Positions 6,981-26,541 of a stretch of DNA of 64,000 bases are shown here, in pieces (position 1 is the stretch's first letter; each line of letters opens with the position of its first letter). Under the pieces are notes generated by a model. The model saw only the letters and a program-made list of their open reading frames with translations, was not told where the DNA came from and did no database searches. Origin of the DNA: Gammaproteobacteria bacterium. GTDB taxonomy: Bacteria; Pseudomonadota; Gammaproteobacteria; Eutrophobiales; Eutrophobiaceae. The stretch is taken from assembly GCA_965200295.1 (NCBI GenBank), contig OZ241347.1, positions 3,006,093 to 3,070,092 of the forward strand, read 5' to 3'. Position numbers and translations under genes: made by a program.

Positions 6981-7203
6981 TGGGTCGGCTGTCAGGGTTT
7001 AATACCGGCAGGTTATCAGCAAACTGAAAAAAACTGGATTTGAGTTTGACAGGCAGGCTGCCAGCAGCCATGAGATCTGGTTCAATCCCAAAACTGGCAG
7101 ATATACCACCATTCCCAATCATCCGGGCGATATGCCTGAAGGAACTCTGAGGGCGATTCTCAAGCAGGCAGAGGTCGAAGTAAACCTGTTTTTGGAAGCT
7201 TGA
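6980..7203 (+). pseudogene. hicA: HicA-family toxin with an apparent +1 frame disruption near codon 9
   Basis: The ATG at 6980 reads 'MGRLSGFNTG...' and hits a stop after 15 codons. The +1 frame from about 7006 reads 'RQVISKLKKTGFEFDRQAGSSHEIWFNPKTGRYTTIPNHPGDMPEGTLRAILKQAEVEVNLFLEA*', a complete HicA body. Confidence 0.6.
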
Positions 7204-7381
7204 TAGTCACGCGTGGACGGTTGTTTTCCTGCACCCCGTCGGTCCAGCGATACGCATGACCCCACTGATTATACTGCACCGCCACCACGTTATCCGTCCA
7301 GTCGGCCCGCTGCCGGGCAAGCGCACCCTTCCTTGATAAAAGACCTGAAAGATGGCCTACAAAGACAGTTGCAAAGCTCAA
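7160..7381 (-). pseudogene. Short RHS-repeat relic
   Basis: 7207-7330 is nearly identical at nucleotide level to an internal segment of the RHS genes (encoding RADWTDNVVAVQYNQWGHAYRWTDGVQENNRPR). The flanks are unrelated. Confidence 0.7.
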
Positions 7382-7679
7382 GTCCGACAGACTGCCAGGG
7401 GGCGTTAGCCGCCAAGGTCGTCATTCACCCGAGTATCTGGAATCAGGCATCGTCGCCACCCGACGATGTCGCTACAGGCCCGAGGGCGCTTACTCGCTGG
7501 CAGGCCGGCGCCGGGGTCGGCGGGACAACCAGCGCACCAGCAGGGCACCGCCTAGCAGCGCGGCCATGGATGCGATCAGGTTAAGCGTCATGTGTCTTTC
7601 TCCTCGGCGCCAAGCATCACCAGGAACCAGCCCAACAAGGTGATCGCCGCTTTGGATTTGACGATGTCGTGGGCTTCAT

Positions 7680-8576
7680 TCATACGGACAAAATACAGGG
7701 ACATAACCCTGTTGTCAAATGCGGGTCGATGCGCTGGCCCCAGACGTCATAGCGCAGGCGCTGTAAGATAACGCCGTCAGGGTCTACCACACCGACCACG
7801 CTGTCGAGGTGGTCTTTGAGATAATAGCGGGTGTCGTTAGCCGTGCGCGTCCCGGCCTTGTTGTGTTGCTGGGTGATGAGCACCGTGCCCCCGGCCAGCG
7901 TGCGCCGATAGGTGCTGGCGCCGTCGGCGGCGATGACATGCTCTACGGCGCCGAGATAGACCGTGGTCGTGGTACTCGTGCCCTGACCGGTGCGCACCGT
8001 GTCCGTGCGGGTGCTGCGGCTGCGGTCGGGGCCATAAACAAAGGTGGTGGCGTGTGTGCCCCGGGTGATGCCAGCCACCTTGTTAAAAGCCGTGTAGGTC
8101 AGCGTGCGCCCGGCGCCGCTGAGTTGGTTGCCGTTGGCATCGTAGGTGTAGGTGTCAGTACCGGCCTGCACCACAGCGTGCGGGCCGGGAGTGCTCTCAT
8201 CCGTGCTGCCGTAGGTGTACGCGCCCACCCCGCTCTTGCGGGTGATGTTGCCCTGAGCGTCGTAGTCCACAGTGCGGGTGACGCTGGTCCGGCCGCCAGC
8301 GGTCCAGGCCCGCACCAGACGGTTGTGGCGGTCGTAGCTGAGATACTCGCCGAACCGGATAGCGCCCGCCTGCCAGGCGCGCTGACTTAAGTTGCCGAGC
8401 ACATCCCAGCCGTAGCTGTCCTTCTGCAAGCGCACACGCAAGGCCGTGTGGGCATTAATCAGACCCACGCGCCCGGTGCTGTCCGAAATGCTGCGCACCG
8501 TACTGACCGCACCGCCGCCTAAGGTCTCCCGGGTAACCTGCCCGCGCGCGTTGCGATGGTTGATGGTGCGATACAC
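7680..8576 (-). pseudogene. Internal RHS fragment truncated at both ends
   Basis: Nucleotide and amino-acid identity to the RHS body from 'YRTINHRNARGQ...' to 'WGQRIDP'. It then diverges to 'HLTTGLCPCILSV*'. No N-terminal body and no toxin tip. Confidence 0.8.
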
Positions 8577-8718
8577 GGCGCGTGGGCGGTGGTAAATATA
8601 GATTCAATGGGATTGGTCGTGCGGATCGACTGCCAATGCGCGCCGGGAAGTCATAAAAGGCCAGCAATGTCTCGCGGTCATCGTCGAGGCAGATGGCGGT
8701 GCACCCCTCCTTTGCCCA

Positions 8719-9081
8719 TCAATGCATTTCCACGGAAAATCTTTCAAATTTGATCCCCCCTTTCGTTATAGTAATCTTATCTGTGACGTCGAAGCCGTAC
8801 GAAACATAGCCTAATTTTTTTGTCACCTCTTTGCCCGATAAGAACTCAACGCCTAAATTGTATCCTGTGTCACGTTTTACGAAAAACTGCATTTCGACTT
8901 CCTCGTCTTGCTCTAACCCCTTAACGGTTTGGGTATTTTCGTTAACTGTAACTTGTATCAATGCAATGATTTCATTAGATTGATTTACGATAGTCAGGGT
9001 TGCTTTGCCATCTTTTGAACAATTAACTAATACGAGCATGGCTCCCACCAAGCAGAGAAATTTCAAGCAGCATGTTTTCAT
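8719..9081 (-). CDS. Putative lipoprotein immunity protein for the HNN-motif RHS tip (low GC)
   Basis: 120 aa with a lipoprotein-type signal 'LCLVGAMLVLVNCS'. Its ATG shares one base with the stop of the upstream RHS toxin gene. Paralogous to 12667..13041. Confidence 0.65.
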   Translation of the reverse strand: MKTCCLKFLCLVGAMLVLVNCSKDGKATLTIVNQSNEIIALIQVTVNENTQTVKGLEQDEEVEMQFFVKRDTGYNLGVEFLSGKEVTKKLGYVSYGFDVTDKITITKGGIKFERFSVEMH

Positions 9082-12000
9082 CAGTATTGCGTGACTACAT
9101 CTAACAACGGTTCTGATGGGTCTATCACTATTAGCTGAGAGTGATCGATCATTGTGCCACTTGCGGCGGCTGCCCGCCCAACCGAGTTATTGTGTAAATC
9201 CATTAGCATTTCTCTTATAGGCTGATCTTTTATAATTAGCCCTTCCAGTTCGTGCCCATATCCGACCATAATTGAGGTGATCGGATTAATTTCCTGATAC
9301 ATGCGCTGATTCCATACAGAATGTCTATATGCATCGCCTGTATTATTGTGGCCCGGTATGGCATTCAAAACTTCCTGGCCAATCTCTCTTGCTCGACCAA
9401 AATCAGGAACAAACTTATCTTTAATTGACTGCAACCCTCGTTTAATGCCATCAGACCAACTTTTTGCTGTCCGACGCGTCTCGTCTATAGAACCTTGCGC
9501 CCGTGCCGCCGACGCTTCCGCGTTAAACAACTGCGCCATCGCCGCAGTTAGCGCCCCATTAGCAAACTTGCCACCGGTGATACGGGAGATGGTGCCACCC
9601 GCCACGGCGGCTATCGTGGTGCGACCGATGACCGCCGAGGCGCTGAGGTCGCGGTAAGAGAATCGTCCCATCACCGCCTTGGACAAACCTGCCGCTAAGA
9701 ACCCGTTGCCGAACTGCCCACCCTGTAACTCGGCCAGAACACCCCCGGCTAAGCCGTGGGTCAAAACATGACCGGCGCCGCCCGCAGGTAACCCCGTGAG
9801 CGCCGTGAAATGCTCCCCTATCCCATAGAACGCCGCCGCACTGATACCCCCGAACAAAGCGCCCTTGACCGAGCCGGTGGCAATGCCGCCGGTGACAAAC
9901 CCGAACTGAAAGGCACTCAGCCAGGACTGGAAGACCCAAGCCTGTACGCCTGGTATCGCCAGCAAGGCAATGCTCATGAACGGCGCAACATCCCCGAACA
10001 CCTTGTTTAAGCCCTTAAACAGCTTCCCGATAAAATACCCACTGGGATCGGTGTAGGTCAAGGGGTTATTGAGCACATAGCTGTAGCGGTTCTGTCCCTG
10101 GGTATAGTGGGGAAACTGAATAATCGGGTCGGCCTGTAAGAACCGACCGAGCTTCGGGTCATAAATGCGCCCGTTCATGTGGATTAAGCCGTGAGCATCG
10201 AGCATCTCATGGCCGGTGTAGCCGCGGGGGGTGAAGCGGGTGTGCAGCGGACTGGTCAGGGTGAGCTGGGCCAGTATCTCACTGTTGTCCGGGTCGATGC
10301 GCTGGCCCCAGGCGTCATAGCGCAGGCGCTGTAAGACAACGCCATCGGAGTCCACCACACCGACCACGCTGTCGAGGTGGTCTTTGAGATAATAGCGGGT
10401 GTCATTGGTCGTGCGGGCGCCGCTCTTGTCGTGTTGCTGGGTGATGAGTACTGTCCCCCCGGCCAGCGTGCGCCGGTAGGCGCTGGCGCCGTCGGCGGCG
10501 ATGACATGCTCTACGGCGCCGAGATAGACCGTGGTCGTGGTACTCGTGCCCTGACCGGTGCGCACCGTGTCCGTGCGGGTGCTGCGGCTGCGGTCGGGGC
10601 CATAAACAAAGGTGGTGGCGTGTGTGCCCCGGGTGATGCCAGCCACCTTGTTAAAAGCCGTGTAGGTCAGCGTGCGCCCGGCGCCGGTGCGTTGGTTGCC
10701 GTTAGCATCGTAGGTGTAGGTATCCGTGCCGGCCTGCACCACAGCGTGCGGGCCGGGGGTGCTCGCGTCCGTGCTGCCGTAGGTGTACGCGCCCACCCCG
10801 CTCTTGCGGGTGATGTTGCCCTGAGCGTCGTAGTCCACAGTGCGGGTGACGCTGGTCCGGCCACCGGCAGTCCAGGCCCGCACCAGACGATTGTGGCGGT
10901 CGTAGCTGAGATACTCGCCGAACCGGATAGCGCCCGCCTGCCAGGCGCGCTGACTTAAGTTGCCGAGCACATCCCAGCCGTAGCTGTCCTTCTGCAAGCG
11001 CACACGCATGGCCGTGTGGGCAGTAATCAGACCCACGCGCCCGGTGCTGTCCGAAATGCTGCGCACCGTACTGACCGCACCGCCGCCTAAGGTCTCCCGG
11101 GTAACCTGCCCGCGCGCGTTGCGATGGTTGATGGTGCGATACACGGCGCGTGGGCGGTTGTGCTCCTGCACCCCGTCGGTCCAGCGATACGCATGGCCCC
11201 ACTGATTATACTGCACCGCCACCACGTTATCCGTCCAGTCGGCCCGCTGCCGGGCCGCATCGAAGGTCTGATACGGACGCCCGTATTCATCGAAGGTCTG
11301 GCGGCTGTGGTAGGTCTTCGCCGTAGCGCCGACGCGCACGGTGGTCTCGGTCATGGCAGGACGCCCCAGCCTGTCATAGCGGTGCGCGCGAACATAGCCG
11401 CTACGGGTGTCTGCGACCCGGCTGAGTTGCCCCAGACCATTAGCCGCCGTGTCATACGTCCAGGTCACCTCGGACTCAATATCCGGCTTGGTATCCGCAT
11501 CAGCGCCATCCGGCACTGTGTCCCGGCGCGTCAGCGGGCGACCCAGGGCATCATAAGTCAGCGCTTGGACATTGCCCACCGCATCGGTCTGTTTGACCAG
11601 TTCGTCAAAGCCGTTATACGTGTAGTGGGTTACCCCCCGGTTCGGGTCTGTTTCCTTGACGCGCCGCCCGCGCAGGTCGTAGGCCCAGGCCACGGTCACG
11701 GCAGCATCGCCCGTGCCGGTGGCAGTCGCCACCACCTGCCCCCAGGCGTCGTAACGGTGCGTGACCGGCGTGCCCGCCGCATCGGTAGTCTTAATCACCT
11801 CGCCTAAGGCATTGCGGGTCTCGACGCTGGCCTGATTCTTGCCGTTGACGGTCTTAGCGCTCATGCCCTGATAAGTCATTGTGAGCCGGCTGTTGTGTCC
11901 GGCGCTGTAGTCAGGCAGGGTGGTCTGTGTCACCCGACCCAGCAGGTCGTAGGTGTGGACCGTGCGATACACCGTACCCCCGACATAGTACGGCTCGCTC

Positions 12001-12317
12001 TGCCGGGCCACCCGGCCCAAGGCGTCATAGTCCGTGTCGGTATGTACCCACTGCCCGCCAAAGCCGCGCCGGGCCGTGCGCACTACCCGATCCAGCATGT
12101 CGCGGTAGTCCCGGCTGACCCCGCCGCCAGCTAGCCGGGTCTCGGTGTACCAGGCCGCCTGACCGGGACAGTGAGACACCCCGGCACAGGCCGCCCGCAG
12201 CGCGCCGGTGTGAGAACCGTCAGCGGTCTGCGTAAAATACAACCGTCCCCCGGCCGTGTAGTGGTAGGTGGTCTTGAGACTGGCTGTCACCGCATAACTG
12301 CCGTTAACATCCAACAC
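9081..12317 (-). CDS. N-truncated RHS repeat protein (orphan) with an HNN-motif C-terminal toxin domain
   Basis: 1078 aa, nearly identical to the main RHS body from 'VLDVNGSY...' through the 'MAQLFNAE' core end. It carries a unique approximately 140-aa tip, '...PGHNNTGDAYRHSVWNQRMYQEI...'. Homology with the main gene stops at about 12352. Confidence 0.8.
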   Translation of the reverse strand: MLDVNGSYAVTASLKTTYHYTAGGRLYFTQTADGSHTGALRAACAGVSHCPGQAAWYTETRLAGGGVSRDYRDMLDRVVRTARRGFGGQWVHTDTDYDALGRVARQSEPYYVGGTVYRTVHTYDLLGRVTQTTLPDYSAGHNSRLTMTYQGMSAKTVNGKNQASVETRNALGEVIKTTDAAGTPVTHRYDAWGQVVATATGTGDAAVTVAWAYDLRGRRVKETDPNRGVTHYTYNGFDELVKQTDAVGNVQALTYDALGRPLTRRDTVPDGADADTKPDIESEVTWTYDTAANGLGQLSRVADTRSGYVRAHRYDRLGRPAMTETTVRVGATAKTYHSRQTFDEYGRPYQTFDAARQRADWTDNVVAVQYNQWGHAYRWTDGVQEHNRPRAVYRTINHRNARGQVTRETLGGGAVSTVRSISDSTGRVGLITAHTAMRVRLQKDSYGWDVLGNLSQRAWQAGAIRFGEYLSYDRHNRLVRAWTAGGRTSVTRTVDYDAQGNITRKSGVGAYTYGSTDASTPGPHAVVQAGTDTYTYDANGNQRTGAGRTLTYTAFNKVAGITRGTHATTFVYGPDRSRSTRTDTVRTGQGTSTTTTVYLGAVEHVIAADGASAYRRTLAGGTVLITQQHDKSGARTTNDTRYYLKDHLDSVVGVVDSDGVVLQRLRYDAWGQRIDPDNSEILAQLTLTSPLHTRFTPRGYTGHEMLDAHGLIHMNGRIYDPKLGRFLQADPIIQFPHYTQGQNRYSYVLNNPLTYTDPSGYFIGKLFKGLNKVFGDVAPFMSIALLAIPGVQAWVFQSWLSAFQFGFVTGGIATGSVKGALFGGISAAAFYGIGEHFTALTGLPAGGAGHVLTHGLAGGVLAELQGGQFGNGFLAAGLSKAVMGRFSYRDLSASAVIGRTTIAAVAGGTISRITGGKFANGALTAAMAQLFNAEASAARAQGSIDETRRTAKSWSDGIKRGLQSIKDKFVPDFGRAREIGQEVLNAIPGHNNTGDAYRHSVWNQRMYQEINPITSIMVGYGHELEGLIIKDQPIREMLMDLHNNSVGRAAAASGTMIDHSQLIVIDPSEPLLDVVTQY

Positions 12318-12666
12318 CTGCTCGGATTGGGTCGGCAGTCCGTGGGCGTTATACCCCGGGACCCGGCGCAGCGAGTGTATTTGAAGTTCTGCTCCGATTA
12401 AACCCCTGCTAGCGGCATTAGCCTCGCCACAGTACCTACAGCCGTTGCCCAGCGCGGCGTAGTTCTGCCAAATTCCTGCTTATTCATCCCCTGACTAGCC
12501 GGGGCGAGGCCGAGTCATGCATCAGAGACGGGCCGAATCCGGAGCCCAAAAGCGGCTACGCATCTGCCACAAGGCCATTCATCGTTCACCCTGATTGAGT
12601 AGGGTGCCACCAACAGGCCAAGTGGTTGGCAGAGACCCGTTTTGAATCCCTCACGCAAGATTTGGG

Positions 12667-13041
12667 TTAGATGTCCGGGTCGGACGTTTCAACTAACACG
12701 CTGTTAAATTCTATACCTGTCTCGTGGATGATAACTTTATCTAATATGCTTGTCTCTCTCACAAGATAACCAACATCTTTCCATATTGTTCTTCCTGAAC
12801 TAAATTCAACATCGATATGGTAATCCGAAGGGCGTTTTACCAGAAAACGCATTTTAGTTTGTTCGCCATGCTTCAGATCTCTAACCATTTGCATATTTTC
12901 ATCAACTGTGACACGAAGTACAACAACCGTCTCACTAGACTCATTCACTATAGTCAATTCTGCTGTCCCTTCTCTGAAACAACCTTCAAATGCGAGTAGA
13001 ACACCAACTAAACAGAGAAATTTCAACCAGTGCGTTTTCAT
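12667..13041 (-). CDS. Putative lipoprotein immunity protein, paralog of 8719..9081
   Basis: 124 aa beginning 'MKTHWLKFLCLVGVLLAFEGC...', similar to 'MKTCCLKFLCLVGAMLVLVNC...'. Start overlaps the stop of orphan cassette 13041..14345. Confidence 0.65.
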   Translation of the reverse strand: MKTHWLKFLCLVGVLLAFEGCFREGTAELTIVNESSETVVVLRVTVDENMQMVRDLKHGEQTKMRFLVKRPSDYHIDVEFSSGRTIWKDVGYLVRETSILDKVIIHETGIEFNSVLVETSDPDI

Positions 13042-14345
13042 CAGTATTGCGTGACGGCATCTATAAATGGTTCTGATGGATCTATTACTATCAGATGAGA
13101 GTGATCGATCATTGTGCCACTTGCGGCGGCTGCCCGCCCAACCGAGTTATTGTGTAAATCCATAAGCGTTTCATTTAGCGGTTGTCTAGTCAATAGATTT
13201 TTAAGTTCGTATAAGTACCCAGCAGTATATGAAGTAACAGGATTGATCTCTTGGTACATCCGTTGACTCCACACGGCGTGTCTTTTTGCATCACCCATGT
13301 TGTTGTGACCGGGCGATGTATCCAAGACTTCCTGGCCAATCTCCCCTGCTCGACCAAAATCAGGAACAAACTTATCTTTAATTGACTGCAACCCTCGTTT
13401 AATGCCATCAGACCAACTTTTTGCTGTCCGACGCGTCTCGTCTATAGAACCTTGCGCCCGTGCCGCCGACGCTTCCGCGTTAAACAACTGCGCCATCGCC
13501 GCCGTTAGCGCCCCGTTAGCAAACTTGCCGCCGGTGATACGGGAGACAGTGCCGCCCACCACGGCGGCTATCGTGGTGCGGCCAATAACCGCCGGGGCGC
13601 TGACGTCCCGATAGGAGAACCGACCTATCACGGACTTGGATAAGCCCGCCGCTAAGAACCCGTTACCGAACTGTCCACCCTGCAACTCAGCCAGCACCCC
13701 GCCGGTCAACGCATGCGCGCCAAGATGTGTGAACCCACCTGTGGCCTCTATAGCCTGAAAGTAGTGCCCCACGGCGCTAAACGCCTGCGCCGATACATAA
13801 GTAAAGAGGCCTGCCTTCAACACCCGTTGCAAGGACACCCCGCCAGCATAGGCGTTCCCAGCCGCCGCCGTGGCGCAGGTCAGAGCATTGCCACTGAGGC
13901 AGTGTGCCAGGGTAGAAAACTGACGCAGTACCGGGACCTTGCTGAACAAGACCTCCCCAAAAATGCCGTTGATGATGCCGCCCACTACCTTACGTAACAG
14001 CTTCCCGATAAAATACCCACTGGGATCGGTATAGGTCAAGGGGTTGTTCAGCACATAGCTGTAGCGGTTCTGACCCTGGGTAGAGTGGGGGAACTGAATA
14101 ATCGGGTCGGCCTGTAAAAACCGGCCGAGCTTCGGATCATAGATGCGCCCGTTCATGTGGATTAAGCCGTGAGCATCGAGCATCTCATGGCCGGTGTAGC
14201 CACGGGGGGTGAAGCGGGTGTGCAGCGGACTGGTCAGGGTGAGCTGCGCCAGTATCTCACTGTTGTCCGGGTCGATGCGCTGGCCCCAGACGTCATAGCG
14301 CAGGCGCTGTAAGACAACGCCGTCGGAGTCCACCACACCGACCAC
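13041..14345 (-). CDS. Orphan RHS C-terminal cassette (core end plus an HNN-motif tip paralog). GTG start, possibly silent
   Basis: 434 aa starting inside the RHS body ('VGVVDSDGVVLQRLRYD...'). The tip contains '...PGHNNMGDAKRHAVWSQRMYQEI...', a paralog of the 9081 tip. A conserved junction lies upstream (14346-14483). Confidence 0.75.
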   Translation of the reverse strand: MVGVVDSDGVVLQRLRYDVWGQRIDPDNSEILAQLTLTSPLHTRFTPRGYTGHEMLDAHGLIHMNGRIYDPKLGRFLQADPIIQFPHSTQGQNRYSYVLNNPLTYTDPSGYFIGKLLRKVVGGIINGIFGEVLFSKVPVLRQFSTLAHCLSGNALTCATAAAGNAYAGGVSLQRVLKAGLFTYVSAQAFSAVGHYFQAIEATGGFTHLGAHALTGGVLAELQGGQFGNGFLAAGLSKSVIGRFSYRDVSAPAVIGRTTIAAVVGGTVSRITGGKFANGALTAAMAQLFNAEASAARAQGSIDETRRTAKSWSDGIKRGLQSIKDKFVPDFGRAGEIGQEVLDTSPGHNNMGDAKRHAVWSQRMYQEINPVTSYTAGYLYELKNLLTRQPLNETLMDLHNNSVGRAAAASGTMIDHSHLIVIDPSEPFIDAVTQY

Positions 14346-14483
14346 GCTGTCGAGGTGGTCTTTGAGATAATAGCGGGTGTCGTTAGTCGTGCGCGTCCCG
14401 GCCTTGTTGTGCTGCTGCGCCGTGCCCAGTGAGAAGGCATGATCAAGGGGTTAGAAATGAGCATCAGGTTTTTCAGGGATGAC

Positions 14484-14948
14484 TTACCCTGATGGGTGAC
14501 ATTCAGTTACATGGGGGGCATTAGTGTTAATTTTTCTAATCCGATTCTTTGTAATATTTTCCTCTAAAACGCCTTCTCTAATCCACACATGACCATTCCC
14601 AACCATCAAACCCCGCCAAGTAAAAAACAGATCTTCAATTTCTTGTTTCAAAATAGCTTCTTTAACGTTCGAATTGAAAATGACTTCGTAGCTTTTAATA
14701 AAATCAGCTTTAGTCTCGAGCCACAACACCTCTCGGTTTCCCAATGAAATCGGTAATGGATATGCGATAAGCTCAGAAATTCGTTTTTTATCATCTGCCT
14801 TCGTAGCAGCTTTAAGGACATTTACAAACGCTATCTGTTCCGACGTAACTTCGTCTGCGGATATAGACTCACAAGCATTAGAATTAATAGCGCTAATAAC
14901 CAATATTACTAATAATATTTTCACTAACAGCCCCCTTGAAACATGCAT
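14484..14948 (-). CDS. Orphan immunity protein, paralog of the lysozyme-tip immunity at 26542..27006. Signal peptide present
   Basis: 154 aa beginning 'MHVSRGLLVKILLVILVISAINSNACE...', about 80% identical to 26542..27006. Confidence 0.7.
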   Translation of the reverse strand: MHVSRGLLVKILLVILVISAINSNACESISADEVTSEQIAFVNVLKAATKADDKKRISELIAYPLPISLGNREVLWLETKADFIKSYEVIFNSNVKEAILKQEIEDLFFTWRGLMVGNGHVWIREGVLEENITKNRIRKINTNAPHVTECHPSG

Positions 14949-15023
14949 ATCTCTTCATAGCGTCGACTGGTCAAGCCTTTTGATGTAGTCTTTGTTGGAG
15001 AATTTCTTACTGAATTCTCAGCA

Positions 15024-15293: not shown

Positions 15294-15297
15294 GAGT

Positions 15298-18554: not shown

Positions 18555-19077
18555 GTTCAGTGCTAATCAACCTGGCCTCGTCCGTAAAGATGATTTCACC
18601 TGACGATGTTCCATCGATAACAGGATAGAATGTAGGAGATATCGCTCCTTTTGTGACAGGTTTCTCGATAATGTTTAACCCCCCAGTTTTGTATTTTAAC
18701 GGTATCTGGCTCGGGCAAGTACTGTACTTTTCATATTTTGCAAAGGGGGCATTTTTGTTTTTCCCAGAAAAGATAAGAATCCTATAAGGATGATCATCTT
18801 CTGGGTTATTTGACTCACACGCCATTATCAATGTTTGTTCGCCTTCTGTGAAATCTTCGGTCACCAGATAGGGCGGCGTAAAAACAAACGGGCTGTCGTA
18901 ATAAAAATCCTTTATCGGTGAACAGCCCTGTGGGGCCATATACGTATGGTAGAAATGATGGGGAATATTGCTGTATTCCGGCAGCATGGGTGTCATCATA
19001 GAGTCGCTTGCTATAGCATACAAAAATGGCCATACAAGCAGTATTGCGATTTGTATCATCTGCTTCATCGTTTTCAT
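18490..19077 (-). CDS. Secreted hypothetical protein (signal peptide, low GC). Possibly an orphan or second immunity protein
   Basis: Probable start 'MKTMKQMIQIAILLVWPFLYAIASD'. Sits between two RHS cassettes. Confidence 0.4.
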   Translation of the reverse strand: MKTMKQMIQIAILLVWPFLYAIASDSMMTPMLPEYSNIPHHFYHTYMAPQGCSPIKDFYYDSPFVFTPPYLVTEDFTEGEQTLIMACESNNPEDDHPYRILIFSGKNKNAPFAKYEKYSTCPSQIPLKYKTGGLNIIEKPVTKGAISPTFYPVIDGTSSGEIIFTDEARLISTERGGGWIYFLCFEGRWYYRTFH

Positions 19078-19323: not shown

Positions 19324-19584
19324 TTATTTGACAATCGTCAATTGCCATTCATCATCCTTATTTTTCTGATACAGCCAGACTTCACTTTTTTCTAATCCCC
19401 TCTCTTTATAATCCACTTGAAAGTAAACATTATCAGAATCGCCTTCTAGAATGCCGATTGATACCAATGTTGCCCATGGATGGTCTTGCCTGAATTTGTC
19501 TTCAACTTCTCCAACGGTTACTATGTCACAGGCTGCTAGTATTAGAACCAAAAGTGAGAAACCAAAAATCCGTCTGGCAATCAT
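19324..19584 (-). CDS. Small lipoprotein, putative immunity for the tip of RHS 19581..23234
   Basis: 86 aa with 'FGFSLLVLILAACD' (lipobox LAAC). Start overlaps the RHS stop. Confidence 0.6.
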   Translation of the reverse strand: MIARRIFGFSLLVLILAACDIVTVGEVEDKFRQDHPWATLVSIGILEGDSDNVYFQVDYKERGLEKSEVWLYQKNKDDEWQLTIVK

Positions 19585-22500
19585 GGGCCATGTCCCTCTG
19601 TGTTAGCAGCTTTAATACCCTTCTCGTTCGCTATTAGATCATCTATAGAAAACGCCCAAGGGCGGCTCCCATCCAACCTAGAAGGCAAATCTCGGACATC
19701 ATACAAGATTAGTCCCTGCAACTCATTGACGATACCAGCGGTTCTTACCAACCCTCCTCCATATTTAAGTGTCAATTCATAGCTTACTGCCTTGTGCCTA
19801 ATTTCGGAATTATCATGCCCTGGAAAATTTTTGTGCCCCCTTGAACGCGTCTCATTAAAATCATCATATACATTTGTGTATTTATCATATTCATCTCCAA
19901 CCCAGATCCTTGCCCTTTTAATCCAGTTTTCTACTTTTTCAAAAATACTTCTATGATCTATCAGCTGTGAACCTTGCGCCCGTGCCGCCGACGTTTCCGC
20001 ATTAAACAACTGCGCCATCGCCGCGGTCAACGCCCCGTTAGCAAACTTGCCGCCGGTGATACGGGAGATGGTGCCACCCACCACAGCCGCTATGGTGGTA
20101 CGACCAATAACCGCCGGGGCGCTGACGTCTCGATAGGCGAACCGCCCCATCACCGCCTTGGACAAACCCGCCGCTAAGAACCCGTTGCCGAACTGCCCGC
20201 CCTGCAACTCGGCCAGAACACCCCCGGCCAAACCATGGGTCAGGACATGACCGGCGCCGCCCGCAGGCAGCCCCGTGAGCGCCGTGAAATGCTCCCCTAT
20301 CCCATAGAACGCCGCCGCACTGATACCCCCGAACAAAGCGCCCTTGACCGAGCCGGTGGCAATGCCACCGGTGACAAACCCGAACTGAAAAGCGCTCAGC
20401 CAGGACTGGAAGACCCAAGCCTGTACGCCTGGTATCGCCAGCAAGGCAATGCTTAAAAACGGCGCAAAGTCCCCGAACACCTTGTTCAAGCCCTTAAACA
20501 GCTTCCCGATAAAATACCCACTGGGATCGGTGTAGGTCAAGGGGTTGTTCAGCACATAGCTGTAGCGGTTCTGACCCTGGGTATAGTGGGGAAACTGGAT
20601 AATGGGATCTGCTTGTAAGAACCGACCGAGCTTCGGGTCATAAATGCGCCCGTTCATGTGGATTAAACCGTGAGCATCGAGCATCTCATGGCCGGTGTAG
20701 CCGCGTGCGGTGAAGCGGGTGTGCAACGGACTGGTCAGGGTGAGCTGGGCCAGTATCTCACTGTTGTCCGGGTCGATGCGCTGGCCCCAGGCGTCATAGC
20801 GCAGGCGCTGTAAGATAACGCCGTCGGAGTCCACCACACCGACCACGCTGTCGAGGTGGTCTTTGAGATAATAGCGGGTGTCGTTAGCCGTGCGCGTCCC
20901 GGCCTTGTTGTGTTGCTGGGTGATGAGTACTGTCCCCCCGGCCAGCGTGCGCCGGTAGGTGCTGGCGCCGTCGGCGGCGATGACATGCTCCACGGCGCCG
21001 AGATAGACCGTGGTCGTGGTACTCGTGCCCTGACCGGTGCGTACCGTGTCCGTGCGGGTGCTGCGGCTGCGGTCGGGGCCGTAAACAAAGGTGGTGGCGT
21101 GTGTGCCCCGGGTGATGCCAGCCACCTTGTTAAAAGCCGTGTAGGTCAGCGTGCGCCTGGCGCCGCTGAGTTGGTTGCCGTTAGCATCGTAGGTGTAGGT
21201 ATCCGTGCCGGCCTGTACTACGGCATGTGGGCCGGGGGTGCTCGCGTCCGTGCTGCCGTAGGTGTACACGCCCACCCCGCTCTTGCGGGTGATGTTGCCC
21301 TGAGCGTCGTAGTCCACAGTGCGGGTGATGCTGGTCCGGCCACCGGCAGTCCAGGCCCGCACCAGACGATTGTGGCGGTCGTAGCTGAGATACTCGCCGA
21401 ACCGGATAGCGCCCGCCTGCCAGGCGCGCTGACTTAAGTTGCCGAGCACATCCCAGCCGTAGCTGTCCTTCTGCAAGCGCACACGCATGGCCGTGTGGGC
21501 AGTAATCAGACCCACGCGCCCGGTGCTGTCCGAAATGCTGCGCACCGTACTGACCGCACCGCCGCCTAAGGTCTCCCGGGTAACCTGCCCGCGCGCGTTG
21601 CGATGGTTGATGGTGCGATACACGGCGCGTGGGCGGTTGTGCTCCTGCACCCCGTCGGTCCAGCGATACGCATGGCCCCACTGATTATACTGCACCGCCA
21701 CCACGTTATCCGTCCAGTCGGCCCGCTGCCGGGCCGCATCGAAGGTCTGATACGGACGCCCGTATTCATCGAAGGTCTGGCGGCTGTGGTAGGTCTTCGC
21801 CGTAGCGCCGACGCGCACGGTGGTCTCGGTCATGGCAGGACGCCCCAGCCTGTCATAGCGGTGCGCGCGAACATAGCCGCTACGGGTGTCTGCGACCCGG
21901 CTGAGTTGCCCCAGACCATTAGCCGCCGTGTCATACGTCCAGGTCACCTCGGACTCAATATCCGGCTTGGTATCCGCATCAGCGCCATCCGGCACTGTGT
22001 CCCGGCGCGTCAGCGGGCGACCCAGGGCATCATAAGTCAGCGCTTGGACATTGCCCACCGCATCGGTCTGTTTGACCAGTTCGTCAAAGCCGTTATACGT
22101 GTAGTGGGTCACACCCCGGTTTGGATCTGTTTCCTTGACACGTCGCCCGCGCAGGTCGTAGGCCCAGGCCACGGTCATGGCAGTATCGCCCGTGCCGGTG
22201 GCAGTCGCCACCACCTGCCCCCAGGCGTCGTAACGGTGCGTGACCGGCGTGCCCGCCGCATCGGTAGTCTTAATCACCTCGCCTAAGGCATTGCGGGTCT
22301 CGACGCTGGCCTGATTCTTGCCGTTGACGGTCTTAGCGCTCATGCCCTGATAAGTCATTGTGAGCCGGCTGTTGTGTCCGGCGCTGTAGTCAGGCAGGGT
22401 GGTCTGTGTCACCCGACCCAGCAGGTCGTAGGTGTGGACCGTGCGATACACCGTACCCCCGACATAGTACGGCTCGCTCTGCCGGGCCACCCGGCCCAAG

Positions 22501-23234
22501 GCATCATAGTCCGTGTCGGTATGTACCCACTGCCCGCCAAAGCCGCGCCGGGCCGTGCGCACTACCCGATCCAGCATGTCCCGATAGTCCCGGCTGCCCC
22601 CGCCGCCGGACAGCCGGGTCTCGGTGTACCAGGCCGCCTGACCGGGACAGTGAGACACCCCGGCACAGGCCGCCCGCAGCGCGCCGGTGTGAGAACCGTC
22701 AGCGGTGTGCGTAAAATACAACCGTCCCCCGGCCGTGTAGTGGTAGGTGGTCTTGAGACTGGCTGTCACCGCATAGCTGCCGTTAACATCCAACACCTGC
22801 TCGGATTGGGTCGGCAGTCCGTGGGCGTTATAGGCGCGGGTCCGGCGCAACGGGCGACCCAGGCAGTCTTTTTCCAGTGTCACAAACCGCCCAGCGCTGT
22901 CGTACTCTGTTGTGTCGATGTTGCAACGGGTGACGCCGGCGGCGGTGACCGCAGCCCGGATGCGGTGGCCGAACTTGTCATAGTCATAGGTGGCGGTGTG
23001 TTTGAGGTCGGTCTTATCCGGCTCCCGTACCTCAGTCTTGAGCAAGCCTTTGCGGTGACCGCTGGTGTAGTAGCTGAACTCGGCGGTGCGGCTTGCCGTG
23101 AACTCGGTGCCGACCATGGTGTTCCTGACGCCGCTCTCGATGCCGGCAACGGGTAGATCATTAGTTGGGCAGTTCAATCCTTGTCGGGTGGATATTAGCT
23201 TGAGTTGGCTCAATCCCTTACATGCCCCAAGCAT
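19581..23234 (-). CDS. N-truncated RHS repeat protein (orphan) with an uncharacterized C-terminal toxin domain
   Basis: 1217 aa. Identity with the main RHS begins at 'TASRTAEFSYYTSGHRKG'. It has a unique 45-aa N-terminus and a unique tip '...SRGHKNFPGHDNSEIRHKAVSYELTLKYGGG...'. Confidence 0.8.
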   Translation of the reverse strand: MLGACKGLSQLKLISTRQGLNCPTNDLPVAGIESGVRNTMVGTEFTASRTAEFSYYTSGHRKGLLKTEVREPDKTDLKHTATYDYDKFGHRIRAAVTAAGVTRCNIDTTEYDSAGRFVTLEKDCLGRPLRRTRAYNAHGLPTQSEQVLDVNGSYAVTASLKTTYHYTAGGRLYFTHTADGSHTGALRAACAGVSHCPGQAAWYTETRLSGGGGSRDYRDMLDRVVRTARRGFGGQWVHTDTDYDALGRVARQSEPYYVGGTVYRTVHTYDLLGRVTQTTLPDYSAGHNSRLTMTYQGMSAKTVNGKNQASVETRNALGEVIKTTDAAGTPVTHRYDAWGQVVATATGTGDTAMTVAWAYDLRGRRVKETDPNRGVTHYTYNGFDELVKQTDAVGNVQALTYDALGRPLTRRDTVPDGADADTKPDIESEVTWTYDTAANGLGQLSRVADTRSGYVRAHRYDRLGRPAMTETTVRVGATAKTYHSRQTFDEYGRPYQTFDAARQRADWTDNVVAVQYNQWGHAYRWTDGVQEHNRPRAVYRTINHRNARGQVTRETLGGGAVSTVRSISDSTGRVGLITAHTAMRVRLQKDSYGWDVLGNLSQRAWQAGAIRFGEYLSYDRHNRLVRAWTAGGRTSITRTVDYDAQGNITRKSGVGVYTYGSTDASTPGPHAVVQAGTDTYTYDANGNQLSGARRTLTYTAFNKVAGITRGTHATTFVYGPDRSRSTRTDTVRTGQGTSTTTTVYLGAVEHVIAADGASTYRRTLAGGTVLITQQHNKAGTRTANDTRYYLKDHLDSVVGVVDSDGVILQRLRYDAWGQRIDPDNSEILAQLTLTSPLHTRFTARGYTGHEMLDAHGLIHMNGRIYDPKLGRFLQADPIIQFPHYTQGQNRYSYVLNNPLTYTDPSGYFIGKLFKGLNKVFGDFAPFLSIALLAIPGVQAWVFQSWLSAFQFGFVTGGIATGSVKGALFGGISAAAFYGIGEHFTALTGLPAGGAGHVLTHGLAGGVLAELQGGQFGNGFLAAGLSKAVMGRFAYRDVSAPAVIGRTTIAAVVGGTISRITGGKFANGALTAAMAQLFNAETSAARAQGSQLIDHRSIFEKVENWIKRARIWVGDEYDKYTNVYDDFNETRSRGHKNFPGHDNSEIRHKAVSYELTLKYGGGLVRTAGIVNELQGLILYDVRDLPSRLDGSRPWAFSIDDLIANEKGIKAANTEGHGP

Positions 23235-23361
23235 TTTTTTCTATACTCACTGACCCGCTATAATAAGGGAGACGCTAAATATGATTGGATAAAAATGACG
23301 ACCCCAAATCGCTTTAGATAACGTACCCCGCATAATGATGTTCTTCCCAAGCAGATCAGCT

Positions 23362-23700
23362 TCACCTTCCATTCAAAAAGACTATCTGAACTTTATCTAC
23401 ATCAGCTACGATTGTCTCATTTAGTTCAGATAATGTCTCACGGGTCCCAACAACAATAGGCAAATTTAATCTAAAAACATAAATAATAAGATATTCATCA
23501 ATGTCCGGTGTTTCACCGTAATTTGGCGATCCAAACCTATGCTCCAGTTCTATTATGCCTGCAAGTTCAACTATTTCGGGCTCATAAGGATAGCTTCCTG
23601 CCGAAACCACACAGCCACTCTGAATTACAATCACAAATATCAATGTCAATGTCTTAATAGCGCGCTTACTCATTGATATATCACCGTTCCTACACGCCAA
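23362..23700 (-). CDS. Lipoprotein (probable start 23673, 'MSKRAIKTLTLIFVIVIQSGC'). Putative immunity for the IS-disrupted tip of 25075..26403
   Basis: Lipobox 'QSGC' and low GC. Overlaps the end of relic ORF 23670..23897 that lies between it and the IS. Confidence 0.5.
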   Translation of the reverse strand: MACRNGDISMSKRAIKTLTLIFVIVIQSGCVVSAGSYPYEPEIVELAGIIELEHRFGSPNYGETPDIDEYLIIYVFRLNLPIVVGTRETLSELNETIVADVDKVQIVFLNGR

Positions 23701-23897
23701 CCCTCCACTCGTTCTATGGCACCCGTAAGATCGTTAAGTTGTTGTGTATTAAGAGCATCCATTCTTGTACCACCACTTAATCCCGTAAATTTCCGAATTA
23801 GTGTTTGGTAGTTTGTAGTATCATTTTCGGATGGAGGAGCATATGTATGAGTTATGCTCATTTCTGGTGTATGAGCTGAGTTAGTGAGGTGGCGCAC
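23670..23897 (-). pseudogene. Probable 3' remainder of the toxin tip separated from its 5' part by the IS256-family insertion
   Basis: ORF abuts the IS left end and overlaps the start of the downstream lipoprotein gene (toxin-immunity coupling). Confidence 0.35.
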
Positions 23898-23905
23898 CCG
23901 GTGTT

Positions 23906-25250
23906 GTAAAATGGTGTTTTTTTGAAGAGCAACCTACAACATAAGAGAGGTACACCACCATGCAGAACGATACTGTAGTTTCCTTAAAAAAGCCAGCAGA
24001 GGAATCAGATCCTTTGAGCAGTTTGTTACGCGACGGTGCCCGGGCGTTGTTGCACGGGGCATTAGAGGCGGAGTTGGCGACGTATTTGTCCAGGCATGCC
24101 GGTGACTGCGATGCATCGGGGCGTCGGCACTTGGTACGCAACGGGTATTTACCTGCGCGCACGGTGCTGACCGGCTTAGGTGAGGTGCCGATACGGGTGC
24201 CCAAGACGCGCGACCGGGGCGGTCAGGGTCGGCATTTTACGTCCCGGTTGTTACCGCCGTACATCAAGCGCACGACGAGCGTGGAGAGTGTGCTGCCGTG
24301 GTTGTATTTGAAGGGGGTGTCAACGGGGGACATGCGTGCGGCGTTAGCGGCGTTGCTGGGCGAGCAGGCGCAGGGGTTATCGGCGGCAACGGTGAGTCGG
24401 TTAAAGCGGGTGTGGGAGGACGAGTACCGGGTCTGGCGGGGGCGGCAGTTTACGGGTCGGCGTTACGTGTACGTGTGGGTAGACGGGATTTACTTCAATG
24501 TGCGCGGCGATGAGGCCCGGCAGTGTCTGCTGGTGATGATAGGGGTGGATGAGTGGGGCCACAAGACCTTGTTGGCGGTCGAGGACGGCTACCGGGAGTC
24601 CAAGCAGAGTTGGCGTGAACTGTTAGTGGACTTGCAAGCCCGGGGCTTTGCGCCGCCGGCGCTGGCTATCGGGGACGGGGCGCTGGGGTTCTGGGCGGCG
24701 CTGGCCGAAGTATATCCCACCACCCGCACACAGCGCTGTTGGGTGCACAAGATAGCGAATATCTTAAACAAGCTGCCCCAGGGTTTGCAGAACAAGGCCA
24801 AGGAAGGCTTACACGCCATCTGGATGGCCGAGAGCCGGGCGGCGGCGCTGGCGGCCTTGAACCGATTTATTCGCACCTATCAGGATAAGTACCCGAAGGC
24901 GACCGCCTGCCTGGACGAAGACCGGGAGGCCTTACTGGCCTTTTATGACTTCCCGGCCGCGCACTGGCAGTCCATCCGCACCACCAATCCCATTGAATCC
25001 ACGTTTGCCACCGTGCGCCTGCGTACCGCCAGGACACGAGGCTGTGTCAGCCGCACCAGCCTGCTGACCATGGTCTATAAGCTCGGATTATGCGCCGAGC
25101 AGAACTGGCGCCGGCTGCGGGGGTTCAAGCACCTGGCCGACGTGATTGAGAATGTGAAGTTTATTGACGGAGTAAAACAACAGACTATTGAACAACACCA
25201 ACGGGCCGCCTGACTATGAGGCCATACACCAGATTTGACAATAACTCCAT
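23906..25250 (+). mobile_element. IS256-family insertion sequence (boundaries approximate)
   Basis: Single 417-aa transposase plus imperfect terminal inverted repeats: left 'ggtgttgtaaaatggtgt', right (reverse complement) 'ggagttattgtcaaatctggtgtatgg'. No clean target-site duplication found. Interrupts RHS cassette 25075..26403. Confidence 0.6.
23960..25213 (+). CDS. IS256-family (Mutator-type) transposase
   Basis: 417 aa containing 'YVYVWVDGIYFNVRG', 'CWVHKIANILNKLP' and 'NPIESTFATVRLR', characteristic of IS256 transposases. Confidence 0.85.
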   Translation: MQNDTVVSLKKPAEESDPLSSLLRDGARALLHGALEAELATYLSRHAGDCDASGRRHLVRNGYLPARTVLTGLGEVPIRVPKTRDRGGQGRHFTSRLLPPYIKRTTSVESVLPWLYLKGVSTGDMRAALAALLGEQAQGLSAATVSRLKRVWEDEYRVWRGRQFTGRRYVYVWVDGIYFNVRGDEARQCLLVMIGVDEWGHKTLLAVEDGYRESKQSWRELLVDLQARGFAPPALAIGDGALGFWAALAEVYPTTRTQRCWVHKIANILNKLPQGLQNKAKEGLHAIWMAESRAAALAALNRFIRTYQDKYPKATACLDEDREALLAFYDFPAAHWQSIRTTNPIESTFATVRLRTARTRGCVSRTSLLTMVYKLGLCAEQNWRRLRGFKHLADVIENVKFIDGVKQQTIEQHQRAA

Positions 25251-26403
25251 ATGTATTGATTGCTTCATTAATGCTTAAACCTTGGTACTTATCCGTTCTA
25301 AGTAAATCAACGAGGGCCCGACGGCCTATGCTCTCACTGGGAAACACTGCGAAACCGCCCGCTTCGCCAAGAGAGCCTCTGCGTTCAGCAAAATCAGTGC
25401 TCGTAATATTACCAGGGTTATTATTGCGCCATGCTCTGGTGCCTCCAGAACGTACCTCTATCGAGCCGTCACTATATTCAATGATTACATCATTGCCATC
25501 CGCTCTTGCTGATACCGGAGCTCTGATACGTGCGTTATTAGCTGCTGCTTTCTCCGCATTAAACAACTGCGCCATCGCCGCCGTTAGCGCCCCATTAGCA
25601 AACTTGCCGCCGGTTATCCTTGAGACAGTGCCGCCCACCACAGCCGCTATGGTGGTGCGACCAATAACCGCCGGGGCGCTGAGGTCTCGGTAGGAGAACC
25701 GTCCCATCACTGCCTTGGACAAACCTGCCGCTAAGAACCCGTTGCCGAACTGCCCGCCCTGTAACTCGGCCAGAACACCCCCGGCCAAACCATGGGTCAG
25801 GACATGACCGGCGCCGCCCGCAGGCAGCCCCGTGAGCGCTGTGAAATGCTCCCCTATCCCATAGAACGCCGCCGCACTGATACCCCCGAACAAAGCGCCC
25901 TTGACCGAGCCGGTGGCAATGCCGCCGGTGACAAACCCGAACTGAAAGGCACTCAGCCAGGACTGGAAGACCCAAGCCTGTACGCCTGGTATCGCCAGCA
26001 AGGCAATGCTCAGGAACGGCGCAACATCCCCGAACACCTTGTTTAAGCCCTTAAACAGCTTCCCGATAAAATACCCACTGGGATCGGTGTAGGTCAAGGG
26101 GTTATTGAGCACATAGCTGTAGCGGTTCTGTCCCTGGGTATAGTGGGGAAACTGAATAATCGGGTCGGCCTGTAAGAACCGACCGAGCTTCGGGTCATAA
26201 ATGCGCCCGTTCATGTGGATTAAGCCGTGAGCATCGAGCATCTCATGGCCGGTGTAGCCGCGGGGGGTGAAGCGGGTGTGCAGCGGACTGGTCAGGGTGA
26301 GCTGGGCCAGTATCTCACTGTTGTCCGGGTTGATGCGCTGGCCCCAGGCGTCATAGCGCAGGCGCTGTAAGATAACGCCATCGGAGTCCACCACACCGAC
26401 CAC
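25075..26403 (-). CDS. Orphan RHS C-terminal cassette with an uncharacterized tip, 3' end disrupted by the IS
   Basis: Begins 'VGVVDSDGVILQRLRYDAWGQRINP...'. The unique tip runs '...NARIRAPVSARADGNDVIIEYSDGSIEVRSGGTRAWRNNNPGN...EAINTY' and then reads into IS sequence from about 25250. Conserved junction upstream at 26404-26541. Confidence 0.7.
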   Translation of the reverse strand: MVGVVDSDGVILQRLRYDAWGQRINPDNSEILAQLTLTSPLHTRFTPRGYTGHEMLDAHGLIHMNGRIYDPKLGRFLQADPIIQFPHYTQGQNRYSYVLNNPLTYTDPSGYFIGKLFKGLNKVFGDVAPFLSIALLAIPGVQAWVFQSWLSAFQFGFVTGGIATGSVKGALFGGISAAAFYGIGEHFTALTGLPAGGAGHVLTHGLAGGVLAELQGGQFGNGFLAAGLSKAVMGRFSYRDLSAPAVIGRTTIAAVVGGTVSRITGGKFANGALTAAMAQLFNAEKAAANNARIRAPVSARADGNDVIIEYSDGSIEVRSGGTRAWRNNNPGNITSTDFAERRGSLGEAGGFAVFPSESIGRRALVDLLRTDKYQGLSINEAINTYGVIVKSGVWPHSQAARWCCSIVCCFTPSINFTFSITSARCLNPRSRRQFCSAHNPSL

Positions 26404-26541
26404 GCTGTCGAGGTGGTCTTTGAGATAATAGCGGGTGTCGTTGGCCGTGCGCGTCCCGGCCTTGTTGTGCTGCTGCGCCGTGCCCAGTGAGAAGGCGTGA
26501 TCAAGGGGTTAGAAATGATCATCAGGCTTTTCAGGGATGAC

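Follow-up and report, generated by a model that had tools for sequence, protein, structure and literature searches.

A 64,000-nucleotide stretch of a gammaproteobacterial genome (Eutrophobiaceae; assembly GCA_965200295.1, contig OZ241347.1, positions 3,006,093 to 3,070,092 of the forward strand; here called the window) contains what is likely an Rhs/YD-repeat polymorphic toxin locus, in which a tandem stack of silent orphan cassettes lies behind a carrier gene whose product is a probable type II secretion system (T2SS) substrate. The main Rhs gene (26982..37826, minus strand, 3614 aa) is followed downstream by five orphan cassettes, numbered o5 (nearest) to o1 (most distal), two core relics, the collapsed fossil of a lysozyme tip and a duplicated module of 1 kb.

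In the proposed explanation the main gene would be an expressed carrier, with a signal peptide, a shell made of a TcB-like and an Rhs (TcC-like) part, a pretoxin region and a lysozyme tip, and a periplasmic immunity protein would be encoded downstream of it. The orphans are 0.9–3.1 kb pieces of the 3' core that lack the N-terminal shell as well as a signal for initiation and a signal peptide; an orphan tip would therefore become usable only once recombination had joined it to the main gene. Each tip-immunity unit has core and pretoxin sequence upstream and the core fragment of the next orphan downstream, and these flanks would act as homology arms.

A stacking of displaced tips downstream of the main gene and the duplication of whole modules had already been proposed in a preliminary description of the stretch, and both are borne out by the repeat map and the 1-kb duplication; self-comparison of the window by BLASTN recovered all of the repeats listed there (five cassettes and two relics). 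The array had been called nested, which does not fit its tandem arrangement. That description did not include an IS256-family element, an immunity-only gene, a transposase fragment, the AQLFNAE switch point or the T2SS/Sec context, all of which are reported below.

Structure of the orphan array

Features of the array lie on the minus strand unless stated otherwise, and positions marked "main" are those of the main gene, to which the repeats were mapped by self-BLASTN. In all copies the homology to the main gene stops at main 27459, the codon after AQLFNAE, and is followed by a differing tip and a small open reading frame (ORF). The three long orphans share 2.1–3.1 kb with the main body, and a chance origin is impossible for repeats of 2–3 kb at 96–99% identity. 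Their near-identity to the main gene had been seen correctly before, and the lengths of 2.6–3.6 kb then given are those of the ORFs including the tips. The 5' truncation points (12373 in o1, 18462 in o3 and 23112 in o4) agree well with the earlier estimates of ~12352, ~18470 and ~23110.

Orphan o4 (19581..23112) consists of core and pretoxin region (19989–23112 = main 27459–30582; 3124 bp, 98.1% identity) and a helical tip (19581–19988). Its ORF reaches an ATG at 23234, 122 bp past the homology boundary, and comprises 1217 aa with an N-terminus that lacks a signal peptide. Orphan o3 (15906..18462) has the closest match to the main gene (16326–18462 = main 27459–29595; 2137 bp, 99.1%), with the tip at 15906–16325 and a GTG-initiated ORF, and o1 (9081..12373) shares 2864 bp (9510–12373 = main 27459–30322; 96.7%) ahead of a DUF6973 tip.

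The other two orphans both have cores cut at main 28388. In o2 (13041..14417) the core is followed by a diverged pretoxin variant of the DUF637 type and then by a DUF6973 tip (Pfam E 6e-10); two blocks of homology (13996–14417 = main 27967–28388, 94%; 13467–13705 = main 27459–27697, 89.5%) enclose a divergent middle part. In o5, core and pretoxin region (25553–26475 = main 27466–28388, 93.8% identity) and the start of the tip (25248–25552) form a first stretch at 25248..26475. The tip is interrupted by an IS256-family insertion sequence (IS) on the plus strand (23849..25247, 1399 bp; PF00872 Transposase_mut, E 9e-70), with 25-bp inverted repeats at its ends (84% complementarity) and a 9-bp target duplication (CATATGTAT). 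Removal of the IS in silico gave one continuous tip ORF ending at 23670, followed by a candidate immunity gene; the distal tip (23670–23848) and this gene (23362–23673) together occupy 23362..23848. The o5 cassette of the preliminary description is thus real, and its supposed end at 25075 falls within the IS.

The repertoire consists of five intact tip alleles and one, that of o5, which is disrupted by the IS. The o1 and o2 tips, both DUF6973, are 81% identical, and their immunity proteins 43% identical. As the o5 tip is disrupted and o1 and o2 carry alleles of one family, the claim that any of at least six tips could be placed on the carrier is an overstatement. The o5 tip matched PHROG 873 "endolysin" (E 7e-20) and the N-terminus of Gp29 (PDB 9vvp, E 1e-11). 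Neither the o3, o4 and o5 tips nor any of the immunity proteins had a match in Pfam or NCBIfam.

The o3 tip carries TGGDR, HxxGxAxD and HxH motifs, which are kept across an alignment. The single-sequence AlphaFold model of this tip was unusable (predicted local distance difference test score, pLDDT, 41), leaving a putative assignment as LAS/M15-like to the motifs and to a sub-threshold PDB profile match (2vo9, E 0.69). For the o4 tip, which has no Pfam model, the AF2 model (pLDDT 88) had no match in PDB. An exhaustive search found 146 homologues of it, many at the C-termini of Rhs proteins, where a word-indexed search had found none. Its remote similarity to the DUF6973 tips (hhalign probability 66%, E 5.6e-5) suggests that it may belong to the same superfamily.

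Each of the six tip alleles is followed by a small ORF of 86–201 aa, and all seven candidate immunity proteins begin with signal- or lipoprotein-like hydrophobic segments, as judged by eye. The candidate for lysozyme immunity, immL (26542..27006), encodes 154 aa with an N-terminus of this type in its translation; a homologue with 52% identity follows an orphan lysozyme tip at the related locus L037. The o5 candidate begins with MSKRAIKTLTLIFVIVIQSGC..., that of o4 (19324..19584, 86 aa) has the lipobox LAAC, and that of o3 (15298..15903, 201 aa) has a signal peptide. The candidates of o2 (12667..13041) and o1 (8719..9081) comprise 124 and 120 aa. A further gene without an adjoining tip (18490..19077, within ORF 18490–19230; probable start MKTMKQM...) has a homologue (75% identity) directly after an Rhs tip at locus L004, and is here called the immunity-only gene.

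Between immL and the o5 core lies a spacer of 66 bp (26476..26541), which is unique, non-core sequence. It is identical at 63 of 66 positions to 14418–14483 and at 65 of 66 to the corresponding spacer of L088, a locus from another strain of the same species. The recurrence of a 138-bp segment (26404–26541 and 14346–14483), which had been described as a conserved recombination junction, was confirmed (133/138 identical). The segment consists of 72 bp of core (main 28317–28388) and the 66-bp spacer, with no special site, and lies within a 1000-bp duplication (13996–14994 = 26054–27052 of the window, 92.4%). The arrangement of lysozyme tip, immunity gene, spacer and core starting at main 28388 precedes three different tips: in the window those of o5 and o2, and in L088 an M23 tip. 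The 138-bp junction thus does not represent a site dedicated to recombination but the end of a lysozyme-immunity cassette of ~1–2 kb seen in three contexts.

The second copy of the spacer and immL' together span 14418..14948; immL' itself (14484–14948) is intact, with 78.6% amino acid identity to immL and a ratio of nonsynonymous to synonymous substitution rates (dN/dS) of 0.52 in this pair. Next to it, the fossil (14949..15283) comprises a pretoxin remnant (main 27832 to 27609) with a 98-bp deletion and the AMAQLFNAE junction, after which the first 9 residues of the lysozyme tip are fused to its last ~20. This collapsed core-side remnant with both ends of the lysozyme tip had been recognised before; what it retains is pretoxin sequence, not the DPxG core end that had been assumed.

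At the distal end of the array, relic A (7709..8588 = main 28231–29105, ~95%) and relic B (7210..7318 = main 29096–29204, 93.6%) are both core fragments, and relic B marks a distal array boundary that is common to L088. Relic A is fused directly to an internal fragment of a second IS256-family transposase gene (8587..8692, minus strand, 105 bp), which is 87% identical to 24907–25013 in inverted orientation. A hairpin followed by a T-run (minus strand, 7712–7695) lies at the 3' breakpoint of relic A and is one of three terminator-like hairpins. A comparison of the tail (6600–9100) with the related loci by tblastx detected only Rhs remnants. The two relics are adjacent in main coordinates (8–10 bp overlap), and occur here in permuted order, 390 bp of unrelated sequence separating one from the other. 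Their interpretation as a simple IS target duplication was rejected, because the neighbouring IS-like piece is an internal transposase fragment with no IS end.

Promoter-like matches were modestly enriched (23 against 13.1 ± 3.2 expected), and terminator-like hairpins were strongly depleted in 7000–26999 (3 against 17.7 ± 4.2 expected). The promoter and terminator scan gave nothing usable on expression of the orphans, and no Rfam family matched in the window.

The carrier gene and its secretion context

The N-terminus of the carrier (MSALSRSIPAYVGSSRTLWSLLLSLCLFTGASLPAAA, followed by QTP; the start reads MSALSRS...LFTGASLPAAA/QTP) has the n-, h- and c-regions of a Sec-type signal peptide, with a cleavage site between AAA and Q (by eye). 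From N- to C-terminus, Pfam detected Ig/Fn3 repeats, which account for ~1100 residues, SpvB, FG-GAP, TcdB_toxin_midN, RHS/YD repeats and Phage_lysozyme. The families of the TcB-like half occur in the order PF03534, PF13517/PF01839 and PF12256, and are followed by PF05593. The last of these (RHS_repeat) was matched in the main protein as well as in o1, o3 and o4, and PF25023 (TEN_YD-shell) is among the precomputed domains of homologues of the main protein. No PAAR or VgrG domain was found in the main protein with Pfam, and no TcA-like translocator among the ~20 flanking ORFs of the window scanned against Pfam. In the N-terminal Ig-like region, the gene contains an internal tandem duplication of ~240 bp (36721–37382, 86% identity), and near-identical repeats of ~80 residues (TGTPKPTASISWSPASVAYGASSTLSWSS...) are found in the protein.

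The Rhs core of the carrier ends with NPLTYADPSGY (NPLTYADPSGYF). The complete core-end motif (GRIYDPKLGRFLQAD...NPLTYADPSGYF), present in the main protein and in every long orphan, is of the PxxxxDPxGL type with a final Y instead of L. Between DPSGY and the tip lies a glycine/alanine-rich pretoxin region of ~170 aa, which terminates in AQLFNAE (AQLFNNE in relatives); a VENN motif is absent from the switch point. DUF637 was scored above the cut-off of 26.6 bits in o2 (28.3 bits) and below it in o3, o4 and o5 (17–21 bits), the main protein being unlisted; PF04830 is precomputed for several of the homologues.

The current tip of the carrier is a phage-type lysozyme (26982..27458; PF00959, E 2e-35) of ~150 residues, the tips being single short domains. 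The G+C content of the lysozyme tip and its immunity gene is 0.40 compared with 0.64 in the core, and the tip-immunity units are AT-rich in general (0.39–0.47). The lysozyme tip and the endolysin-like o5 tip are predicted to target the cell wall.

Both the array and the carrier sit inside a T2SS gene cluster, between gspE and gspF. On one side, gspH-I-J-K-L-M-(C/N)-E occupy 295–6643 on the plus strand, with the ATPase gene gspE last (4913..6643; Pfam T2SSE, E 7.5e-141) and convergent with the end of the array. On the other side, gspF (37976–39271) and the secretin gene gspD (39441–41738), together 37976..41738 on the plus strand (Pfam T2SSF and Secretin), are transcribed away from the main Rhs gene, with a 150-bp spacer in between. 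Adjacency of an array and gspE was also found in L001, L003, L004, L037, L087 and L088, and the gspF-gspD arrangement in L086. Altogether, linkage of Rhs and T2SS genes recurs in L001, L003, L004, L017, L037, L054, L086/87 and L088, that is, in the nearest relatives and some distant ones. This context suggests that the carrier is probably a type II secretion substrate.

Delivery may then proceed in four steps. The carrier would be exported to the periplasm by Sec, and would leave the cell by type II secretion. The cargo of pretoxin and tip would be freed from the shell, and the cell-wall hydrolase would act in the periplasm of a competing Gram-negative cell. For crossing of the outer membrane, the DUF637-like pretoxin region is a candidate element. 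With its RxYDPxxGRF...DPSGY motif, the core end is consistent with an autoproteolytic release of the C-terminal cargo into the shell, as in TcC and Rhs proteins.

Several other features were observed around the T2SS cluster. Between gspE and the distal end of the array lies a HicB-like ORF (6738–6980, plus strand; DUF1902, E 1e-5), and the HicA-like frame after it (6738–7200 region, plus strand) ends ...GDMPEGTLRAILKQAEVEVNLFLEA, with a start that looks disrupted by eye. At the same place in L088, genes for HicA (74 aa) and a DUF1902 protein were called. An intergenic repeat of ~160 bp was found at 39271–39431, between gspF and gspD, at 197–347, upstream of gspH, and at 44877–45044 and 58253–58417 (inverted), with partial copies at 53940–54008 and 63808–63889. 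The copies are 87–97% identical and form five consecutive near-perfect hairpins (-75 kcal/mol, z = -11.9) without an Rfam match; the repeat, also present in L088, looks like a repetitive extragenic palindrome/bacterial interspersed mosaic element (REP/BIME) or a miniature inverted-repeat transposable element (MITE).

Just past the T2SS cluster, a DDE_Tnp_1 (IS4/IS5-type) transposase gene is found at 43696–44805 (plus strand). In L086 (5146–6801), a DDE_Tnp_1 transposase gene splits gspD into two ORFs, so the T2SS of that lineage may be inactive.

Exchange of cassettes and alternative explanations

The differences between copies are clustered (permutation p <=2e-4 in six of seven pairs). The main gene and o4 differ at 58 positions in 3124 bp, yet share an identical run of 1144 bp, with 11–12 differing sites in single 100-bp bins elsewhere. 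All three two-by-two partitions of sites are present among main, o4, o3 and o1, which is incompatible by the four-gamete criterion. For the orphan cores, dN/dS was 0.05–0.16 in all ten pairs, and ~9 kb contained no stop or indel; these low values and intact frames indicate that the variation arose in functional genes and not by decay in place.

A locus from a different sample, L088, belongs to a strain of the same species and has T2SS flanks that are 99.1–99.5% identical to those of the window. It is colinear with the window from 29976 to 25558, a segment that covers the core with the lysozyme tip, then immL and the spacer, and finally the core fragment that begins at main 28388. Past the equivalent of 25558 it has a Peptidase_M23 tip with another immunity gene, and then rejoins the window at 7304, in relic B. 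L088 thus contains a single orphan in place of the ~19 kb of the window. Over 917 nt, the lysozyme tip (452/452) and immL (465/465) show no difference between the two strains, with 96.1–97.3% identity in the flanking core, and the identical block ends ~195 bp inside the orphan core. Of the differences between L088 and the window, 62 of 98 in the main core and 23 of 25 in the orphan core match other copies in the window, in runs, indicating that patches moved between orphans and the main gene within the species.

A sister lineage (L086/L087, ~90% nucleotide identity) has the same frame of gspD-gspF, main gene and gspE, with another main tip and other orphans, and its tips switch at the same AQLFN[AN]E point. 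In L037 (OZ244846.1), the lysozyme tip and its immunity gene occur as an orphan. Relatives with complete chromosomes have arrays of comparable or larger size, L002 and L037 lying ~58 kb apart on OZ244846.1. Tips of family members include M23, Tae4 and lysozyme. Looking up proteins of the window by exact sequence led to no other contig. The names of the nearest metagenome-assembled genomes (RHO3, APA, SB0675) may point to an origin from sponges.

Taken together, the patterns of differences show that homologous recombination and gene conversion among the copies and between strains has shuffled patches and exchanged cassettes. The long homologous bodies had been proposed earlier as a substrate for recombination, and the mosaic differences, the dN/dS values and the two related loci with the same flanks support this. 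The same description called recombination frequent, a rate that is not measurable from a single sequence.

Two side observations concern related arrays and tips in other settings. L080 (ENA ERZ25068762 ctg150599, 110 kb) contains a 20-kb run (341–19812) of about ten small toxin-like and immunity-like gene pairs, which includes Peptidase_M15_4 and Phage_lysozyme ORFs and ends in an RHS fragment of 826 aa; apparently this is a similar array of orphans, longer still, from another organism. In L081–L085 (e.g. L081 9377–10685), a protein of 236 aa carries the pretoxin-end motif GGKFANGAVTGAFVQAFNHE and an o3-type tip (68% identity), and its gene is followed by an ORF of 198 aa. This gene has a set of Trb/VirB type IV secretion genes and an integrase as its neighbours, so that a conjugative element, too, carries the o3-type tip-immunity unit.

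The main gene may be where new cassettes come in, through a crossover in its core. The simplest entry would be Campbell-type integration of a looped-out circle containing a core fragment, a tip, an immunity gene and the spacer. Integration would push the old tip downstream, and the displaced tip would take on the 5' truncation point of the incoming piece. This model explains the recurrence of lysozyme tip, immunity gene, spacer and core (main 28388) ahead of o5, o2 and the M23 tip of L088. The cassettes nearest the main gene would be the youngest, which fits the complete identity of the lysozyme unit between strains, and the older, distal ones would decay by IS insertion and reduction to fossil and relics.

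A more specific version remains speculative and is on balance doubtful. In it, a dedicated T2SS exports the ~390-kDa TcB/TcC-type Rhs shell as a diffusible bacteriocin, the CdiA-like pretoxin carries hydrolases over the outer membrane, and tips are renewed by circular cassettes passing from strain to strain through single crossovers. If it held, the array would be an integron-like cassette system driven by homology, with no integrase.

Several points weigh against the proposed explanation or parts of it. Campbell integration would be one of several routes to the observed structure, and a double crossover fits equally well, as the identical lysozyme block ends ~195 bp inside the orphan core. 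Through direct recombination between the main gene and an orphan, the cassettes in between would be lost together with their immunity genes, possibly at a cost to the cell. Should the window derive from a metagenome assembly, the mosaicism could partly be strain mixing in the consensus. The IS in o5, the fossil and the relics show that some members of the array are clearly decaying. As to secretion, a shell-forming protein of ~390 kDa is far bigger than typical type II substrates, and more remote members of the family (Pseudoalteromonas, Microbulbifer and others) showed no T2SS genes in the 10 kb downstream. The toxin functions of the o3, o4 and DUF6973 tips are putative.

Among the alternatives, the one that survives best is that the array is kept mainly for expressed immunity genes acting against the tips of neighbours, with the toxin parts as passengers. 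This would account for the intact immL' beside a destroyed toxin, for the immunity-only gene at 18490–19077 and for the faster divergence of immunity proteins than of tips (43% against 81% identity in o1 and o2); protective orphan immunity genes are known from other systems (PMC10539506, PMC12247911). It leaves unexplained why in-frame core fragments of 2–3 kb show divergence of the purifying type, and why core patches move between the orphans and the main gene. As a replacement for the proposed explanation it is possible, though rather unlikely; it is compatible with that explanation and does not exclude it.

It is less probable still, and in our view improbable, that the orphans are a graveyard of pseudogenes, debris of past duplications and replacements that no longer serves as a reservoir of tips. 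The IS in the o5 tip, the frameshifted fossil, the two relics, the transposase fragment and the lack of start and export signals in the orphans would all be expected of debris. Unconstrained decay, however, should bring dN/dS near 1, and the ~9 kb of orphan core free of stops and indels gave far lower values. Five tips and all immunity ORFs are intact, and patches were exchanged between orphans and the main gene since the divergence of two strains whose T2SS flanks are still ~99.3% identical.

That the array is an assembly artefact, with cassettes of co-existing strains or collapsed or expanded repeats wrongly concatenated in tandem, is very improbable. Repeats of this length and identity are hard for short reads, and in L088, the closest strain, a single orphan lies between the same flanks. 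Each copy nevertheless has its own pattern of single-nucleotide differences, a unique junction and an intact frame, the IS shows a clean 9-bp target duplication, and the source contig is 3.52 Mb long. Moreover, the segment from the main gene through lysozyme tip, immL and spacer to the core at main 28388 was assembled independently in another sample (L088), and arrays as large or larger are present in the relatives with complete chromosomes.

Finally, it is highly unlikely that truncated Rhs proteins are made from internal starts, for example ATG 23234, and act inside the producer like a toxin-antitoxin pair, as proposed for Salmonella (PMC7043789): the ATG-initiated o4 ORF extending past the homology boundary, the GTG-initiated o3 ORF and the excess of promoter-like matches would suit this, but the new N-termini have neither a signal peptide nor the TcB-like part, the identifiable tips are peptidoglycan hydrolases and would be harmless in the cytoplasm, the immunity proteins are exported (judged by eye from their N-termini), and no convincing ribosome-binding site precedes ATG 23234 (by eye).

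Comparison with known toxin systems

Orphan rhs-CT/rhsI modules and displacement of C-termini have been described in Enterobacteriaceae (Poole et al. 2011, PMC3150448; Koskiniemi et al. 2014, PMC3967940). As in those loci, a GC-rich YD-repeat core is combined here with AT-rich variable tips, each with an immunity gene, the downstream orphans keep the 3' core without start or export signals, and an orphan in one genome is fused to a full-length gene in another. The proposed route of activation, recombination between main gene and orphan, is likewise the same; it has been shown experimentally only for Salmonella Rhs (PMC3967940). Unlike the enterobacterial loci, the present one has no PAAR or VgrG and no linkage to type VI secretion, and its carrier of 3614 aa has a signal peptide and a TcB-like half. 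The switch lies ~170 residues after DPxG, at the end of the pretoxin region, the core fragments are unusually long (up to 3.1 kb), and the identifiable tips are predicted to act on peptidoglycan and not on nucleic acids.

Toxins that combine a signal peptide, SpvB, a propeller and RHS repeats have been grouped in a "TcdB/TcaC" class (Zhang et al. 2012, PMC3482391). The carrier resembles these proteins and the TcB-TcC cocoons in having a signal peptide, SpvB, an FG-GAP/integrin-like beta-propeller, the TcdB middle region and RHS in one chain. It differs from Tc toxins in its ~1100 residues of N-terminal Ig/Fn3 repeats and in lacking a TcA-like partner among the neighbouring genes scanned. The predicted cargo is antibacterial (lysozyme, endolysin-like) with periplasmic immunity, in place of an insecticidal ADP-ribosyltransferase.

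A tie between Rhs toxin genes and T2SS genes is known from two sources. Culture supernatant contains the activity of Bcn-A, an Rhs bacteriocin of Xanthomonas perforans, and mutation of the secretin gene xpsD abolishes this activity (PMC7259588); Rhs families linked to gspG were recognised by gene neighbourhood in Xanthomonas and Ralstonia (bioRxiv 10.1101/2025.05.08.652813). The present array differs from both in lying inside the secretion operon, between gspE and gspF; the carrier is 2.6 times longer and has the TcB-like half. Full-text literature searches found no description of this combination of carrier, secretion context and tips. The secretion context is a more useful lead than the array itself. 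If the reading is correct, the link between T2SS and Rhs, so far represented by one Xanthomonas bacteriocin and by neighbourhood surveys, would reach giant shell-forming toxins of uncultured marine Gammaproteobacteria, and would raise the question of how so large a cargo leaves the producer and crosses the outer membrane of the target.

Similarity to CdiA (DUF637/PT-VENN) and the cdiA-CT/cdiI arrays is seen in the DUF637-like region just upstream of the tip, the short conserved motif at the switch point and the downstream arrays of orphan toxin-immunity pairs. Unlike in CdiA, the motif is AQLFNAE and not VENN, DUF637 exceeds the Pfam threshold only in o2, and the carrier is an Rhs shell and not a filamentous haemagglutinin, with no CdiB.

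Since arrays of Rhs orphans are already well known, the main contribution of this one is as an example of unusual completeness and good dating, with mosaic copies, a fossil, an IS and a same-species strain that has a different array between the same flanks. Such a locus is suited to long-read population studies of the rate at which silent tips are swapped. It is a large, well-preserved case of the known displacement of Rhs C-termini on an unusual carrier: the principle is ordinary, and the carrier itself, its setting among secretion genes, the switch point and the repertoire of tips are unusual.

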